A stretch of DNA of 42,072 nt, from positions 72,095-114,166 of IMG/VR virus record IMGVR_UViG_3300022555_000023. One strand, given 5' to 3'. The position numbers were made by a program, and so were the translations under genes. The notes beneath the pieces were generated by a model. The model saw only the letters and a program-made list of their open reading frames with translations. It did no database searches and was not told the origin of the DNA. Below are positions 1,699-33,222 of this stretch, piece by piece; within the stretch, counting starts at the first letter, position 1, and each line of letters opens with the position of its first letter. The stretch comes from a virus (lineage: Duplodnaviria > Heunggongvirae > Uroviricota > Caudoviricetes).

Positions 1699-2717
1699 TT
1701 CAGCAGTACGCGGGCCAGCATGACGTACAGTTCGGCATGTTTGTTGGCAGAGTAAAGCGGCCCCGGCAGGAAGCAGTCCATCACCTCGATGGCCGCACCA
1801 GCCGCGGCTGGGTTCTTGGCGTTGCGGACGATGGACGCGAAGTACTGCACGATCTGGATGCGGATGCCCTCGGGGTCGAGGTTGCTCAGGCCGCCTAGCA
1901 CCTTCATGGCCTTCTCCCAGGAGATTCCGCCCTTGCTCATGGCAAGGCATAGCTCTCGCAGGTCGGGGTTCTCATACGCACCCTGCAACAGCACCGCTGC
2001 CTCGCGGCGATCCTCGGCAGTTCGACACTTGTCGAGATTCGTTAAGGCCATACGCGGACTGCCGTCCGACTCGTGGGCAATAAGATCAAGGATATCGTCG
2101 TCGAGGTTCAGCTTCTGCTCTTCGTTCACGATTTGCAGCAGGACGAACAGGGTCTTGGCATCCAGCGGTTCGAGATTGTAGCTCGCTCCGCGGGTCATGA
2201 TGGTGGCCGGCACCTTGCCACTGACCGTGGTGCAGAAGATCCAGTACCCGTAGGGTGGCGGCTCCTCGGCTGACTTCAGCAGGCACTGCCAGGCCTGCCC
2301 CGACAAAGCATGTGCCTCGTCCACGCAGATCAGCTTCTTGCCGCCGGCGATCATGGGCTTGTACCGCATCCACTCGACCAGTTCGCGGGCCTTCTCGGCA
2401 CTGCTGTAGACCGGGCCGTCGACCTCCTTGTAGTCCATGAGCAGGTCGTTGCCGCCGCACACATAATTCCTGATAGCGCGGGAGAACGTGGTCTTGCCCA
2501 GGCCGCTCGGCCCGGTGAACACGAAGCATCGTTTGCTTCGTGAATCCAGAACTGCCTTGACGCTGGTACTGATAGACTCGTGGCCGAGGATATCATCGAA
2601 CGTGCCGGGACGGTAGATGTTACAAAAGTCCGCTTCGGGCGATGGTGCAGGCTTCTCAGCCTTGGCCGGTATCAACGATTCCTGCGTGTTGCGTGTCAGT
2701 TTGCGGCGTTCCGCCAT
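1695..2717 (-). CDS. dnaX: DNA polymerase III gamma/tau-like clamp loader (AAA+)
   Basis: YRPGTFDDILGH, GPSGLGKTT, DEAHALS..AWQCLLKSAEEPP. SD AAGGAG precedes ATG 2717. Confidence 0.85.
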   Translation of the reverse strand: MAERRKLTRNTQESLIPAKAEKPAPSPEADFCNIYRPGTFDDILGHESISTSVKAVLDSRSKRCFVFTGPSGLGKTTFSRAIRNYVCGGNDLLMDYKEVDGPVYSSAEKARELVEWMRYKPMIAGGKKLICVDEAHALSGQAWQCLLKSAEEPPPYGYWIFCTTVSGKVPATIMTRGASYNLEPLDAKTLFVLLQIVNEEQKLNLDDDILDLIAHESDGSPRMALTNLDKCRTAEDRREAAVLLQGAYENPDLRELCLAMSKGGISWEKAMKVLGGLSNLDPEGIRIQIVQYFASIVRNAKNPAAAGAAIEVMDCFLPGPLYSANKHAELYVMLARVLLK

Positions 2718-2916
2718 TGGGTATCTCCTTAAGTTCAGCGACAACGGTTACATGCCGCAATTGCCCGTATTGGTCTCTGCTGTATACGTGGACGACATCG
2801 GCCACGAGGTAGTTTCTTTTATCACCGTCTATCTGGACACCTTCACCGATCCGCGGCGGGGAGTCCTGATTCACGCTGTCGGTACGGTCATCGGAATATC
2901 CTAAGATAACTTTCAT
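2656..2916 (-). CDS. Hypothetical protein
   Basis: 86-aa ORF with ATGA coupling to the upstream ORF; overlaps the dnaX start. Confidence 0.5.
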   Translation of the reverse strand: MKVILGYSDDRTDSVNQDSPPRIGEGVQIDGDKRNYLVADVVHVYSRDQYGQLRHVTVVAELKEIPNGGTPQTDTQHAGIVDTGQG

Positions 2917-3248
2917 TTGAACTTTGCCTCCATGATCTTCCAGTCAGCCAGGACTACGGTTGATCTCCGGCGGCTCTCCTCCACATGACTGGCTGCACGC
3001 ATAAACTCAAGCTGATTGGCAAGGCGGCGGGCCTGGTCGCGTTCGGCCTTCACAGCGTTGTAATCGCTGCGTGCCTGTTTGCACGTGTGCTCGATAGACC
3101 GTACACGATCCGACCAGTACGGCGGCGGATCGTTCGGGCCTAGCTCGTTCAGCATCTCCGATACTTTCGACCGCTGCGACACGGTCATCGGAACCTCGCA
3201 CAGGAAGTCGACCAAATCGCGGAATCTATTTGTGGCGTCAATCATCAT
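2913..3248 (-). CDS. Hypothetical protein (coiled-coil C-terminus)
   Basis: 111-aa ORF coupled by ATGA overlaps on both sides. Confidence 0.6.
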   Translation of the reverse strand: MMIDATNRFRDLVDFLCEVPMTVSQRSKVSEMLNELGPNDPPPYWSDRVRSIEHTCKQARSDYNAVKAERDQARRLANQLEFMRAASHVEESRRRSTVVLADWKIMEAKFK

Positions 3249-17556: not shown

Positions 17557-17576
17557 TATCATGCAACCGCCGTGCC
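17557..17576 (-). promoter_or_regulatory. Sigma54-like motif, copy 4
   Basis: (T)GGCACGGCGGTTGCATGATA, an exact TGGCACG-N4-TTGCA match. Confidence 0.8.
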
Positions 17577-23833: not shown

Positions 23834-24754
23834 TCAAACTTGGATCATACTGAATGGATCGATGCGTTCCGTTACGGCGGCCCGCATCAGCTTATCCATC
23901 GCTCGGGCCTCCAACTGCCGAATGCGTTCTTTGCCGACGCCAAGGGCCTTGCCGACGTCCGTAAGAGTCATCGCGTCGCGATCAAGTCCGAATCGGCTGA
24001 CAATGATGAAATGCTCGCGTTCGTCAAGGTGCTGAAGCATCTTGGCGATTCCATGCTGCCGGGCCTGCATCACGTCAACACGATGCGGAAGGTCGCTTAA
24101 CGGGCTTTCCACGTTATCCAGCGGGTTCTCCTCGCCCGTGCGGAAACGTGCCAGTTGCCGAATCTCCACAGCGATGCTGCGTGAATAGTTCTTGATCAAT
24201 GCCCAGGTCGCATAGGTTGAAAACCTGAAGCCGCGGTCGTAATCGAACCTGTCCACAGCCCGCATCAGGGAGATATTGCCGTCGCTAATCAGGTCGAACA
24301 GTTCATCGCTGCTGTGTGCATACCGGCGGGCGATGTTCACCACCAGTCGCAAGTTGGCCGTGATGATCTCGTTGCGGACGGCCATAGCCTGGTCGGCTAA
24401 TTGCAGAATCTCATGCATGGCCCGCACGGATGGCCGGTGCGAATCAAGATCATCTCGCAGGCGGGACGTCTTGTATTTCAAGTAGTTCATCTTGCGGAAC
24501 AGGTGAGCCTCCTGTTCCCGCGTCAGCAGGGGCGTATCGTACAGTGCCCGCAGGTACGGAGGCAGGCCCGGTGTGGGTTTCACGGCCTTCACGGGCGGTC
24601 CTACCGGGCGATCCGCAAGGATGCGTGCCTCCTGTCGGGATTTGACGCGGCTAAATGATATGTTCGGAATATAAACCAAGTCCAGCTCACGCACCCGAAC
24701 AATCAGGCGGTGACGAACAGCGTCAATGGGTCTGCGGGCCACGGATGTGAGCAT
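23834..24754 (-). CDS. Sigma70-family (RpoD/RpoS-like) sigma factor
   Basis: YLRALYDTPLLTREQE, ANLRLVVNIARRY, LISDGNISLMRAVDRFDYDRGFRFSTYATWA, region 4 TLTDVGKALGVGKERIRQLEARAM. SD AGGAG. Confidence 0.92.
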   Translation of the reverse strand: MLTSVARRPIDAVRHRLIVRVRELDLVYIPNISFSRVKSRQEARILADRPVGPPVKAVKPTPGLPPYLRALYDTPLLTREQEAHLFRKMNYLKYKTSRLRDDLDSHRPSVRAMHEILQLADQAMAVRNEIITANLRLVVNIARRYAHSSDELFDLISDGNISLMRAVDRFDYDRGFRFSTYATWALIKNYSRSIAVEIRQLARFRTGEENPLDNVESPLSDLPHRVDVMQARQHGIAKMLQHLDEREHFIIVSRFGLDRDAMTLTDVGKALGVGKERIRQLEARAMDKLMRAAVTERIDPFSMIQV

Positions 24755-24801
24755 GTTATTTCTCCTAGCGAACCAGACACGCCTCATTATGACAGGTTCT
24801 A

Positions 24802-26352
24802 TCAAACGTGGCCACTTGCATTAGCACTTCCGCTATATGCCGCAAGAACCGGGTCCGGTCGGGCTCTTCCCTGAGCCCGACCTCGCGGCGGAGCGACGGC
24901 AGTCTCTCCGTCGTCCTCCGCTTCCCGTTCAGGCACTCGTTGCCGCCCACTTCGCGCGGTATTAGAATCGCGATCCGGCGATCCACGCGGCGGGTAACAA
25001 TCCTTGTCGATGTAAGCACAGTCCACGGCGAACGTATTCGTATCGTAGCACTGGCTGATGAGAAACTCGAAGCTGCTCTTGACGTTGCGGCCCAGCACGA
25101 ACAGGCGGGCGAGGTTGGCCTTCTTCTCGTCGTCGGTCTGGCTGTAGAAGATGCCCTTGTCAAACGTCATCACCTTGCCGAACGATTCAGCAACGTCGTG
25201 AGCCCGCACGTTCTTCTTGTGAGCCCCGTCGCGGTTCGTCTGGCTGGCCACCACCACGGCACACGCCATCTCACTGGCGATGCCGCGAAGCCCGACCAGA
25301 ATTTTGTCTAGCTGAATACGATAGTCGCGGTTGCTGGACTGGTCTTCCTTCATCAGGTCGGGATAATCAACCAGGAGCAGGTCGGGGACGTAGTTATGCA
25401 CGCTTTCCAAGGCCCGCAGCCACTTCCGCAGGGCCATCACCGAAAGCTGGCCGCTGGGGAACTCCTTAATCTTCAGGGGTAGCCTGCCCTTGAACTTCCG
25501 CAGGAACTTGTTGATGACTCGGTCGCCCTCGTCGGTGCCGAACCGGGCTGGGTTGGGAACCTCCGTGGTGCCGCAGTCGAGGAACTTGCCTTCCTCGTCC
25601 TTTTGAATCCACGGCCTGGTGATCGTATCTGCGTCGCCCATCGTCGTCATGGTTCGCACATAGCGATACATGATCTCCTCTTGCGACATCTCCAAGGTCA
25701 CGTGGCAGACCTTCTTGCGCTGGAGCATGGCCCGCTTGCCAAACTGTACCATCGCAAAGGTCTTGCCGTGCTTCGCTGGGGCGACGAACATCAGCATCTC
25801 TTTGCGGGCGGGCGTCACGCGATGCTTGTCGAGGATTTCGATGCCGGTCTCGAAGCTGTCGTTCTGCTCGCGGTGCTGCGGGCCAACGAACTTACCCAGA
25901 AGATTCAGGTCGAGGCCAGGGTCAAGGGCTGCGTCACGTTCGTCGGCGGCCTTCACCATCGCGTGCATCGCGGCCTCGTCATCGCCGGCGTTGTGCAGTT
26001 CGATGATCCTTCGCAGTGCCAGGCTCATGTTCTGCGTTCGCATGAACCGCCGCAGCTTGGGGACGGTGTAGTCCTCGTTGACGGTCGTCTTGGCGTCGAG
26101 AATCGACCGCTGAATGTGATCGTAAGTATCCTCGTCGTCGGGGTAGCGTTCCCGCAGTTCCTCGATCATGTTGATGAACAGATCTTTGGGCGGGCAGTGA
26201 TGCTCGTCGATATAGGCGTACAGCTTATCGGCGAGGTTGCGTACCTCGGCGGGTTCGTACAGGGTCGTGGGACAGATAGCTGAGATTGTTTTGCCGCCGC
26301 GGTCGCGGTAACAGCAAATGGTGAGCAGGTCTATCTGCTCAAGGTAATTCAT
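24802..26352 (-). CDS. dnaB: DnaB-like replicative helicase
   Basis: APAKHGKT, VTLEMS, LLLVDYPDLM, VVVASQTNR, VAESFGKV. Confidence 0.85.
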   Translation of the reverse strand: MNYLEQIDLLTICCYRDRGGKTISAICPTTLYEPAEVRNLADKLYAYIDEHHCPPKDLFINMIEELRERYPDDEDTYDHIQRSILDAKTTVNEDYTVPKLRRFMRTQNMSLALRRIIELHNAGDDEAAMHAMVKAADERDAALDPGLDLNLLGKFVGPQHREQNDSFETGIEILDKHRVTPARKEMLMFVAPAKHGKTFAMVQFGKRAMLQRKKVCHVTLEMSQEEIMYRYVRTMTTMGDADTITRPWIQKDEEGKFLDCGTTEVPNPARFGTDEGDRVINKFLRKFKGRLPLKIKEFPSGQLSVMALRKWLRALESVHNYVPDLLLVDYPDLMKEDQSSNRDYRIQLDKILVGLRGIASEMACAVVVASQTNRDGAHKKNVRAHDVAESFGKVMTFDKGIFYSQTDDEKKANLARLFVLGRNVKSSFEFLISQCYDTNTFAVDCAYIDKDCYPPRGSPDRDSNTARSGRQRVPEREAEDDGETAVAPPRGRAQGRARPDPVLAAYSGSANASGHV

Positions 26353-28123: not shown

Positions 28124-28247
28124 GGGGCATGCCGCACGCGGCGCGGATGCTGAATAGTTACGCAGGGCGGCGGTCGCTACCGCGCAATGGAGGCGACCGA
28201 CTCGCAGCGTAGCCATTCGCCTGCGGGTTCGATCCCCGTATGCTCCA
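28124..28247 (+). ncRNA. Candidate tRNA-like RNA with an alanine acceptor stem, a T-arm and an extended rod replacing the anticodon arm
   Basis: GGGGCAT/ATGCTCC-A acceptor (G3:U70), GCGGG-TTCGATC-CCCGT T-arm, nested helices. Confidence 0.65.
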
Positions 28248-28259
28248 CATGAGGTGATC

Positions 28260-29201: not shown

Positions 29202-29274
29202 AAAAGGCCGACGAGGTGTTTGCCGAGACATCTTCGTTCATGGTAGATGTAGTCCCGGCGTGCAGTCGGCCTAG

Positions 29275-29650
29275 TGGAGGCGGCGGGGATCGAACCCGCG
29301 TCCCGCGACATTTCCGATCAAGCGTCTACGTGTGTAGTCGATCCTATTTGCAAGCTGTCGTCTCGCGATCCCCGGATCAACAGGGTTGTCGTTCGACCAG
29401 CCGGTAGCATTTTTAATCCACGGCGTGACCAGCAGCGACCGTGAACGATCCGAGTTTACAGCCGGCTTTTGAACCTCTCGGATGGGTTCGCAGTCGGCTC
29501 GTGGTTATTAGGCCACGAGGGCGAAGGCCGGAGCCTTCTCGAACTTGTTTTTGGCAAGTAAGTTTTTGGTCGGCTATTAACGTGGCCTGCTGACCAACCA
29601 CGACACGCAACTCAATCTTCTAGCTGCCCGGTCGAATCCAATTCGCCCCC
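29275..29650 (-). ncRNA. ssrA: tmRNA (one-piece); tag peptide (A)AKNKFEKAPAFALVA
   Basis: 5' GGGGGCGAATTGGATTCGAC and 3' GACGCGGGTTCGATCCCCGCCGCCTCCA (G3:U70; CCA not encoded). Tag ORF 29555-29511 ends in TAATAA. Confidence 0.95.
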
Positions 29651-29728: not shown

Positions 29729-29802
29729 TGGCGGAGACAGGATTTGAACCTGCGACCTTGAGATTATGAATCTCATGAGCTACCGGACTGCTCCACTCCG
29801 CG
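29729..29802 (-). tRNA. tRNA-Met (CAT) with an initiator-like body
   Basis: CGCGGAG TGGAGCAGTCCGGTAGCTC A TGAGA TTCATAA TCTCA AGGTC GCAGG TTCAAAT CCTGT CTCCGCC A; anticodon at 29766-29768. Confidence 0.93.
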
Positions 29803-32040: not shown

Positions 32041-32142
32041 GGTCGTTTCAGGGGTTTGTGGTTTATAGAACCGAGGCGGGTGAACCGTAAGCGTTTATTA
32101 CTATCGGTTAGCCTACCTATTTCAGAAGAATTAACATGCGAA

Positions 32143-32640
32143 TCACGTGCCGGTCTGAATCCGAATTCGGTTTATCTTAGCGTTCGCCCCTCGAATGGCT
32201 GTAGCCGCCTGGTTGTACGCGATGGCGGCTTCCCTTGCCGTAGGAAAACACCCCACGTATTGTAGTAACCCGTTACAGCGAATTTGGGCTAAGTAGTACT
32301 TTCCAAGATGGAGACTTACACCCCTGTACAGTACGGTATGATTCGTTGTCCTTCGGTTAAGCTGCTGATCACTTCGCGTAGCCCACCTTACGTTCTTCAC
32401 CCACTCATTCTCCCGGCACTGGTCGCATTCACCACAGGTGTAGCTACCCTCGTTATCTTCGCGGTCAAGAGTGTAGCCTTCTGGTCGTGGGCCTAGAACC
32501 TGGGTGAACTTAGTAAAATCTTGTAAACCCAAGCAGACCGTAATTCCACGACCACCATAGTTAAAATAGGCTTGGTGGCTTGAATTAAAACAGCGGTACT
32601 TCATGTCCCGCCACGCCGTACCAACTGGATTACGCGACAT
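32143..32640 (-). CDS. HNH homing endonuclease with a C-terminal AP2 DNA-binding domain
   Basis: AWRDMKYRC...YGGRGITVC...TLDREDNEG.Y...NVRWATRSDQQLNRR, then YRGVS...YLAQIRCNG..YVGCFPTAREAAIAYN. Visibly AT-richer than its flanks. Confidence 0.88.
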   Translation of the reverse strand: MSRNPVGTAWRDMKYRCFNSSHQAYFNYGGRGITVCLGLQDFTKFTQVLGPRPEGYTLDREDNEGSYTCGECDQCRENEWVKNVRWATRSDQQLNRRTTNHTVLYRGVSLHLGKYYLAQIRCNGLLQYVGCFPTAREAAIAYNQAATAIRGANAKINRIRIQTGT

Positions 32641-32844
32641 AATATAACTCCGAAATGACGCCAACCCGCCCCACGTTTGACCTCACAAGTCACGCAGGAC
32701 GGGTTGGTTAGTCATGATTCGTTTGTCGGCCAAGTTGTGAGGTCAACCGACTGCCCTTATTCTAGTCGGTTTACCTGCGGCGTCAACGGGACGCCGCACT
32801 TTGGGCCGTCACCCGACTCGGTCGTGTTTGCTTTCTGCCTACCC

Positions 32845-32864
32845 TATCATGCGAAGGCTGTGCC
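32845..32864 (-). promoter_or_regulatory. Sigma54-like motif, copy 7
   Basis: (T)GGCACAGCCTTCGCATGATA. Confidence 0.7.
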
Positions 32865-32968
32865 ATTCGCTGTGAATCCACCGAACTGCTCTTGGGGCCG
32901 CAGGAACCCGTGGGCTCACGCGCGAGTGTTGCCCAGCCATGATTTTCGAGCCAGTTCGGTTTCTGAGG

Positions 32969-33048
32969 TGATCCCTGCGGAATCGAACCGCTGCGGTCTT
33001 ACTCCCGTAAGACCTGACCCGCAGGTTTTACCCCGCGTTCTAAGGACC
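32969..33048 (-). ncRNA. Candidate tRNA-like domain within a ~300-nt structured RNA
   Basis: GGTCCTT/AGGGATC-A acceptor-like stem, GCGG-TTCGATT-CCGC T-arm, 8-bp GGGA-capped hairpin in the anticodon position. Confidence 0.5.
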
Positions 33049-33174
33049 GTTCGCTCCTGCGGCCTCGTGCCCTCGATCTTGGCGTCGGGGGACGGAGCCG
33101 GTATTGCTTGTACTTCGCACCTCGCTTGTCGGGCCTTCACCTCACTCAGGCAAGGGCCGCAGGAACGGTAAGCA

Positions 33175-33194
33175 TATCATGCGAATGCCGTGCC
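33175..33194 (-). promoter_or_regulatory. Sigma54-like motif, copy 8
   Basis: (TT)GGCACGGCATTCGCATGATA. Confidence 0.75.
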
Positions 33195-33222
33195 AATAAA
33201 TCCGAATTCGACGGTCTACGTC

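Follow-up and report, generated by a model that had tools for sequence, protein, structure and literature searches.

Phage non-coding RNAs are poorly charted, and RNAs that are tRNA-shaped without being tRNAs, such as tmRNA and the Y RNAs, have each revealed unexpected biology. In the mascRNA-type modules of MALAT1 and MEN-beta, and in synthetic tRNA-spacer arrays, a tRNA-shaped element is part of a longer non-coding RNA, and its processing by RNase P and at the 3' side frees a small RNA and sets the ends of its neighbours. We know of no bacterial or phage family of such processing modules in Rfam. Within its tRNA cluster phage T4 encodes the stable RNAs C and D, small RNAs whose function is not known and which owe their maturation to the enzymes that process tRNAs. 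What defines YrlA is that it is linked to Ro60 and that its ends form a stem to which Ro binds (PMC4201824); in M. smegmatis it is cleaved by RNase P and receives CCA, and YrlA RNAs are in some cases encoded by phages (Chen et al. 2014, PMC4201824). Large surveys have listed many tRNA-like candidates in IMG/VR (PMC10690425).

The locus described here lies in a window (the whole stretch of DNA analysed, 42,072 nucleotides) that runs along the reverse strand of an IMG/VR virus record of 112,523 bp, which CheckV rates as complete. The minus strand of the window carries nearly all genes, and the gene content includes a family-A DNA polymerase that carries a fused UDG domain, a DnaB-like and an SNF2 helicase, and an amidoligase. 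Nucleotide and protein searches found no close relative in the phage collection, where the DNA polymerase identity was at most 30%. The 112.5-kb record encodes no Ro60, CCA-adding enzyme, sigma54, enhancer-binding protein or integrase, and no T7-type RNA polymerase was found in a search that was run without a positive control. The public DNA runs that carry the locus are freshwater, lake-water and freshwater-sediment metagenomes, and no RNA run containing it is listed among the public runs. On ENA contigs from the DNA of four runs the copies of the locus are identical, with no variation. The identical locus also lies on a 192,532-bp ENA contig (L002), to be set against the 112.5-kb record rated complete; possibly that record is a fragment, or else the contig is a concatemer or chimera. 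The RNA locus occupies a promoter-dense stretch upstream of the replication genes, and the features that concern us are as follows.

33175-33195, minus strand: promoter-like motif P1, TGGCACGGCATTCGCATGATA (TGGCAC-N5-TCGCATGATA), with sigma54 -24/-12 spacing
33052-33167, minus strand: module H, a 5' hairpin domain with a 13-bp closing helix (33155-33167 with 33052-33064; z = -3.69)
32966-33048, minus strand: module T, a tRNA-shaped four-way junction present in all four lineages
33048-33042 with 32976-32970, minus strand: 7-bp acceptor-like stem of T, GGTCCTT with AGGGATC
33037-33020, minus strand: D-like hairpin of T, 6 bp
33014-32995, minus strand: 8-bp arm of T with a GGGA tetraloop, in the place of the anticodon arm
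32991-32977, minus strand: T-arm of T, GCGG-TTCGATT-CCGC
32969-32966, minus strand: tail of T, A-C-C-U
32880-32960, minus strand: module M, an outer helix (32952-32960 with 32880-32888, arms CCGAACTG / CAGTTCGG) that encloses three small hairpins
32911-32935, minus strand: 5-bp hairpin of M
32895-32909, minus strand: third hairpin of M, GGGU-UCCUGCG-GCCC, which holds the 3' copy of a repeated 13-mer
32916-33140, minus strand: 74-aa ORF overlapping H, T and M, spurious
32845-32865, minus strand: promoter-like motif P2, which heads the leader of the HNH/DUF6011 genes
32143-32664, minus strand: HNH gene, downstream of the RNA locus
29729-29802: tRNA-Met, by the Rfam tRNA model and ARAGORN
29272-29650: one-piece tmRNA, by Rfam and ARAGORN, the only tmRNA, 3.3 kb from module T
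28124-28250, plus strand: second acceptor/T-arm RNA, a long rod standing where the anticodon arm would be (z = -2.5)
23834-24805: sigma70-family sigma factor encoded by the phage

The sequence-only reading of this DNA had seen a sigma54-like promoter in front of the segment, and the motif does agree with the sigma54 consensus TGGCAC-N5-TTGCW, its GG and GC blocks lying one helical turn apart at the exact -24/-12 spacing (phage form TGGCAC-N5-T(C/T)GCA); it also heads the homologous loci of the relatives described below (lineages B, C and D, the present phage being lineage A). As a 21-nt motif, TGGCAC-N5-T(C/T)GCATGATA, it occurs ~14 times in the 112.5-kb genome against 0 expected, and six of the copies fall in the window (at 17557, 18119, 32845, 33175, 34203 and 34598, in the form TGGCAC-N5-TYGCATGATA). 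The motif is often accompanied by GATTC ~10 nt upstream. The leader behind P2 is kept in lineage B at 78% identity. Neither Sigma54_DBD nor Sigma54_activat is encoded by the phage, despite its sigma70-family factor, so that sigma54-type transcription here would require host factors; sigma54-consensus promoters in a phage with neither sigma54 nor an activator are unusual in themselves. We infer transcription from P1, and a start 12 nt past the GC of the motif is an assumption. Since no intrinsic terminator was found on the minus strand between P1 and the genes or P2, a discrete RNA would need processing.

Judged by its reading frames, none of which is conserved, the locus does not code for protein. 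For the 74-aa ORF there is no match to a Pfam or PHROG family, gene callers do not call it on the public contigs, and in lineage B it is broken by several stops. A small ORF from an AUG in M was rejected, having no Shine-Dalgarno sequence and stopping after 4 codons in lineage C; other genes of the phage carry AAGGAG-type Shine-Dalgarno sites. The HNH gene is a mobile insertion. Its cassette sits in the loop of a conserved leader hairpin (window 32102-32789); in place of the 686-688 nt of that stretch lineage B has 10 nt, as has one contig of a public run, and lineage C has a homologous HNH gene at another site (L063:10298-10876). Being mobile, and missing from lineage B and the public contig, the HNH gene is unconnected to the RNA.

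Relatives of the locus were reached by walking through neighbouring proteins, and all came from ENA lake metagenomes. The proteins flanking T are ~59-74% identical across the four lineages. A covariance model built from 89 nt of lineage A matched T in the others at 46-78 bits overall, with E from 1e-10 to 1e-20. The lineages, with their order of modules (P, promoter motif; R, lineage-specific rod; M2, a second copy of M), are:

Lineage A, present phage: order P-H-T-M-P
Lineage B, L007 and L008: 264-aa protein 60% identical, DUF6011 protein 74%; T at L007:8052-8142 (46 bits, E 2e-10); order P-T-R-M-P-M2-P
Lineage C, L063, L064 and L066: 267-aa protein sharing 59% identity with A and 64% with B; T at L063:12110-12199 (77 bits); order P-M-T-R-P
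Lineage D, L070: 96-aa protein that matches the lineage C protein at 92% identity across the aligned part; T at L070:844-933 (78 bits); order P-H-T-R-P

The C and D sequences are identical within T, which leaves three distinct T sequences from one narrow clade. Over these three, 93% of cells pair and 10 of the 25 pairs are changed on both sides, i.e. are compensatory; partner-slid controls gave 40-51% pairing and 0-5 double-changed pairs. This alignment was fitted to the model. A second one, by MAFFT and RNAalifold, is independent of it and returned the same four helices with 10 compensatory pairs, and the compensatory changes across lineages fall in all four helices. A plain MAFFT alignment of A and B mis-registers the modules, such that B seems to be without T, which the covariance-model search finds there. 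The 85-nt centre alone folds as a cloverleaf (z = -3.62), and none of 200 shuffles was equally stable. On this comparative evidence T is a real, conserved and previously undescribed RNA family, a compact mimic of tRNA that covariation supports and Rfam lacks. The tRNA-like centre of the earlier reading thus proved genuine and anticodon-less, with compensatory changes, but its T stem has just 4 bp and its D-like hairpin, of 6 bp, has no GG in the loop.

The unpaired positions of T that are conserved comprise AC before G1, AGA past the acceptor strand, GGUC-AGG, the CGGGAG loop, CCGC, UCGA in the T-loop and a purine-C-C-U past the acceptor stem, this last forming an R-C-C-U (A/G-C-C-U) tail in every lineage. 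The 8-bp arm with its GGGA tetraloop is found in all lineages, and as a perfect GNRA-capped arm it is identical in A, C and D. The acceptor-like stem has 7 bp in A and B, and 5 bp plus 2 mismatches at the stem base in C and D. The T-loop is canonical (UUCGAUU) in A, C and D and reads AUCGAAG on a 3-bp stem in B, the stem having 3-4 bp overall, and the D-like loops (GUAAAA, GAGA and GUAACA) contain no GG. The 3' acceptor strand and tail (32964-32974) read GGAUCACCUC, which we take to equal the 3' end of 16S rRNA as far as the anti-Shine-Dalgarno core; since its place is taken by CCUCCU in lineage B and CCUUU in lineage C, the likeness is not conserved and is probably a coincidence. Pairing of the CCUC tail with GAGG motifs of the extra domains was set aside, as it fits lineages A and B and not C.

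The only exact 23-nt match to the T-arm and 3' acceptor strand among 185,579 species genomes lies in Sphingomonas sp. Leaf208 (L055:1714-1736; NZ_LMKH01000004.1), where it is followed by A, giving CCA, and adjoins an IS3-type element (ALIL pseudoknot); no other part of the cloverleaf is present there. An attP or integration site was considered and rejected, the phage having no integrase and the single Sphingomonas match being isolated. The three-sequence T model found nothing in 151 Sphingomonadaceae genomes, which also means that it does not cross-hit the tRNAs of these bacteria. Only lineage A is present in IMG/VR. Alignment of DUF6011 there gave 31 homologues at 33-48% identity (one short partial one at 72%), none of them with the promoter or T, and two other protein anchors gave no relative in IMG/VR. 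Exact and degenerate DNA patterns of T, M and the promoter found no relatives in IMG/VR and the JGI metagenomes, only 5 single chance matches to the promoter. The distant homologues of the anchor proteins (L048, L051, L057, L059 and L069) have neither the promoter motif nor T. In one of these, the DUF6011/amidoligase phage L057, two tandem ~190-nt, near-identical non-coding units (2500-3130) are intergenic, 0.9-1.5 kb upstream of the DUF6011 gene, with no sigma54-like motif used.

The minimum free energy fold of the 301 nt has three domains, namely a 5' hairpin, a four-way junction resembling a cloverleaf and a 3' domain (z = -2.63), and these correspond to separable modules. H, which holds the 5' copy of the 13-mer and its complement, is common to A and D (L070:738-846), with the same closing helix in both and compensatory changes at 4 interior pairs, and it is absent from B and C. 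In lineages A, B and C the score of M is ~100 bits, and 8 of its pairs are compensatory. Lineage B has a second, diverged copy, M2 (L007:8388-8481; 30 bits), with its own promoter (promoter and module together at L007:8360-8480), and it is a single long hairpin in which a 16-bp stem is followed by a U5 terminator (z = -4.0). M2 looks like a self-contained sRNA gene and, because it has its own promoter and terminator, M-type modules would seem able to exist as stand-alone genes. The rods R of B and C could not be aligned. T is the sole module in all four lineages, starting 16, 107, 114 or 126 nt behind the promoter motif by lineage and with neighbours that differ from one lineage to the next, as expected for a self-contained unit. 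The locus shows RNA modules shuffled like gene cassettes between related phages. The single ~300-nt RNA first proposed for the segment is not borne out, since H, T and M are separable, occur in differing order and combination in the relatives, and no terminator bounds a 300-nt species.

The interpretation that we favor, with slightly less than even confidence, is that the segment is a promoter-driven cluster of phage small RNAs in which T acts as a tRNA-like processing module and perhaps also as a mimic. The P1 transcript would consist of three independently folding modules in a row, H, T and M, and the host tRNA-maturation machinery would take T for a pre-tRNA. RNase P would cleave at its 5' side, at G1, and 3' trimming and the CCA-adding enzyme would complete R-C-C to R-CCA. 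T could in this manner punctuate the primary transcript, freeing a stable, tRNA-sized RNA of ~80 nt and setting the ends of H, M and R. The sequence determinants for RNase P and CCA addition are present in T, namely the coaxial stack of acceptor and T stems and R73-C74-C75. From these we infer both the processing by RNase P and CCA addition and a function in trans of the released RNAs. Against the processing reading stand the 11-bp stack, the degenerate T-loop in B, the acceptor mismatches in C and D, and a D-like loop without the elbow GG; also, the invariant CGGGAG loop is not obviously needed by a pure processing signal.

A doubtful but possible alternative is that T is mainly a tRNA mimic or decoy, the matured RNA binding and titrating a host factor that recognises the acceptor/T-arm half of tRNA, which may be a tRNA-targeting defence nuclease, a toxin that modifies the acceptor end or a tRNA-binding enzyme. 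In its favour, a very stable 8-bp helix with an invariant GGGA loop replaces the anticodon arm in all lineages, and with that arm replaced T would be immune to anticodon nucleases. The same phage also has a tRNA-Met, a tmRNA and the second acceptor/T-arm RNA with its rod (28124-28247), and the location of T, in the promoter-dense stretch upstream of the replication genes, is again consistent with a decoy. On the other hand, T has no known partner and no defence or counter-defence gene is linked to it, and the degenerate T-loop of B and the missing elbow contacts would not help a mimic. A decoy role is compatible with the processing model, and the two are not separable here. The two could be combined, T being an excised, CCA-completable mimic that serves as both processing handle and acceptor/T-half decoy in a tRNA-punctuated sRNA array behind the sigma54-type promoters of a freshwater-phage clade; we put this forward as a speculation that is rather unlikely to hold in full. 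Two further observations touch the tRNA-like content of these phages: the acceptor stem of the second RNA is GGGGCAU/AUGCUCC, and that RNA lies just upstream of a primase-like gene.

It is less likely still that the stretch is a cis-acting 5' leader or regulator of the downstream HNH, DUF6011 operon, controlling read-through, stability or translation. With no terminator between P1 and P2, P1 transcripts probably continue into the genes, neighbouring promoter copies also precede long structured leaders, and in A, B and C DUF6011 is encoded downstream of the locus. However, a second promoter always stands between the modules and the gene, the downstream gene in lineage D is a different one, with no DUF6011, the order of the modules is permuted, and no Rfam riboswitch family matches the locus.

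Very little credence can be given to the two-state switch of the sequence-only reading, in which a single ~300-nt ncRNA toggles between pairing of the 5' copy with the complement and of the complement with the 3' copy. The sequence features listed for it were all present when checked: the 13-mer GTTCCTGCGGCCC occurs at 33154-33166 and 32895-32907, exactly two copies in the whole 112.5-kb genome, and the complement GGCCGCAGGAGC lies between them (33053-33064), able to form 12 bp with either copy, one G-U included. These three elements are unique to the locus, and in A the loop of the M hairpin, UCCUGCG, is identical to the H strand. Yet the alternative helix, of complement with 3' copy, is confined to lineage A, the only one in which H and M coexist; of the two, D has only H, and B and C have only M, the M segment there making its own local hairpin with a loop of UCCGGAU. 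Even in A the forced pairing yields -119.4 against -126.3 kcal/mol, i.e. it is 6.9 kcal/mol less stable, with pair probabilities of ~1e-4. Moreover, the proposed RNase P site would part the complement from the 3' copy.

That T is a decaying tRNA gene or a functionless chance cloverleaf is disfavoured, and we think it highly improbable. The tRNA covariance model RF00005, which scored the tRNA-Met alone, gave no match on 32966-33048 even at E <= 10 (gathering threshold 29 bits), and likewise none in lineages B, C and D, and ARAGORN misses T at its defaults, finding it only at a threshold that gives ~200 false positives; tRNA genes of phages turn over fast, and lineage B does have a tRNA-Lys ~0.8 kb upstream of the locus. 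Decay or chance would not be expected to leave compensatory changes in all four helices, nor a perfect GNRA-capped arm identical in three lineages. In 300 dinucleotide-shuffled genomes, a TTCRANY T-arm abutting a 7-bp acceptor helix arose 0.10 times per genome, and the same combination with an NCC tail 0.007 times. An element acting as DNA, be it a recombination site or a set of repeats to which activators of the sigma54-type promoters bind, would account for three 12-mer copies inside 270 bp directly upstream of P2 and for the frequent recombination implied by the shuffled modules, but is scarcely credible, given that covarying stems and conserved loops are the signature of RNA rather than of protein-binding half-sites and that the 12-mer is not found beside other copies of the promoter.

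In comparison with described families, Rfam searches of lineages A-D at gathering and permissive thresholds returned only chance-level matches (PyrR205, nhaA-I, mir-133). By its architecture and model scores T is not a tRNA, a tmRNA or a YrlA/Y RNA. With tRNA it shares the cloverleaf four-way junction, a 7-bp stem formed from the 5' and 3' ends (7 bp in A and B), the UUCGAUU T-loop in three of the four lineages and a purine discriminator followed by CC, present in all as part of the R-C-C-U tail. Where tRNA has a 5-bp anticodon stem with a 7-nt loop, T has an 8-bp stem with a GGGA tetraloop; the junction linkers, 2 and 1 nt in tRNA, are 4 and 5-7 nt in T; the 5-bp T stem and the G18/G19 of the D-loop are replaced by a stem of 3-4 bp and a loop lacking G18/G19; and the stack of acceptor and T stems, canonically 12 bp, is 11 bp (7 + 4). 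T and tmRNA (RF00023) alike mimic tRNA without an anticodon, and both have an acceptor stem and a T-arm. T has none of the G3:U70 pair, pseudoknots and tag reading frame of tmRNA, its wobble pair being G2-U71, and it is self-contained, whereas the tRNA-like domain of tmRNA is built from distant ends.

The likeness to Y RNAs that had been suggested for the segment did not survive: no TROVE/Ro60 match was found in the 112.5 kb of the phage, in a search whose control found the family in Deinococcus and Bacteroides, nor was there an Rfam match. T and YrlA are both non-coding, with T- and D-like arms and an acceptor-like stem, but their topology is opposite, since YrlA has a stem-loop flanked by its T- and D-like arms at the acceptor position (PMC4201824), while T has an open acceptor end and a closed 'anticodon' arm. 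The T4 RNAs C and D are likened to T by description only. The mascRNA-type modules and tRNA-spacer arrays are eukaryotic or engineered, and T resembles them in being embedded in a longer transcript, its own processing being putative. Should RNase P process T, the module would represent a natural counterpart, in a bacterial virus, of these tRNA-based RNA-processing arrays, and a handle for finding the targets of the sRNA modules that accompany it.
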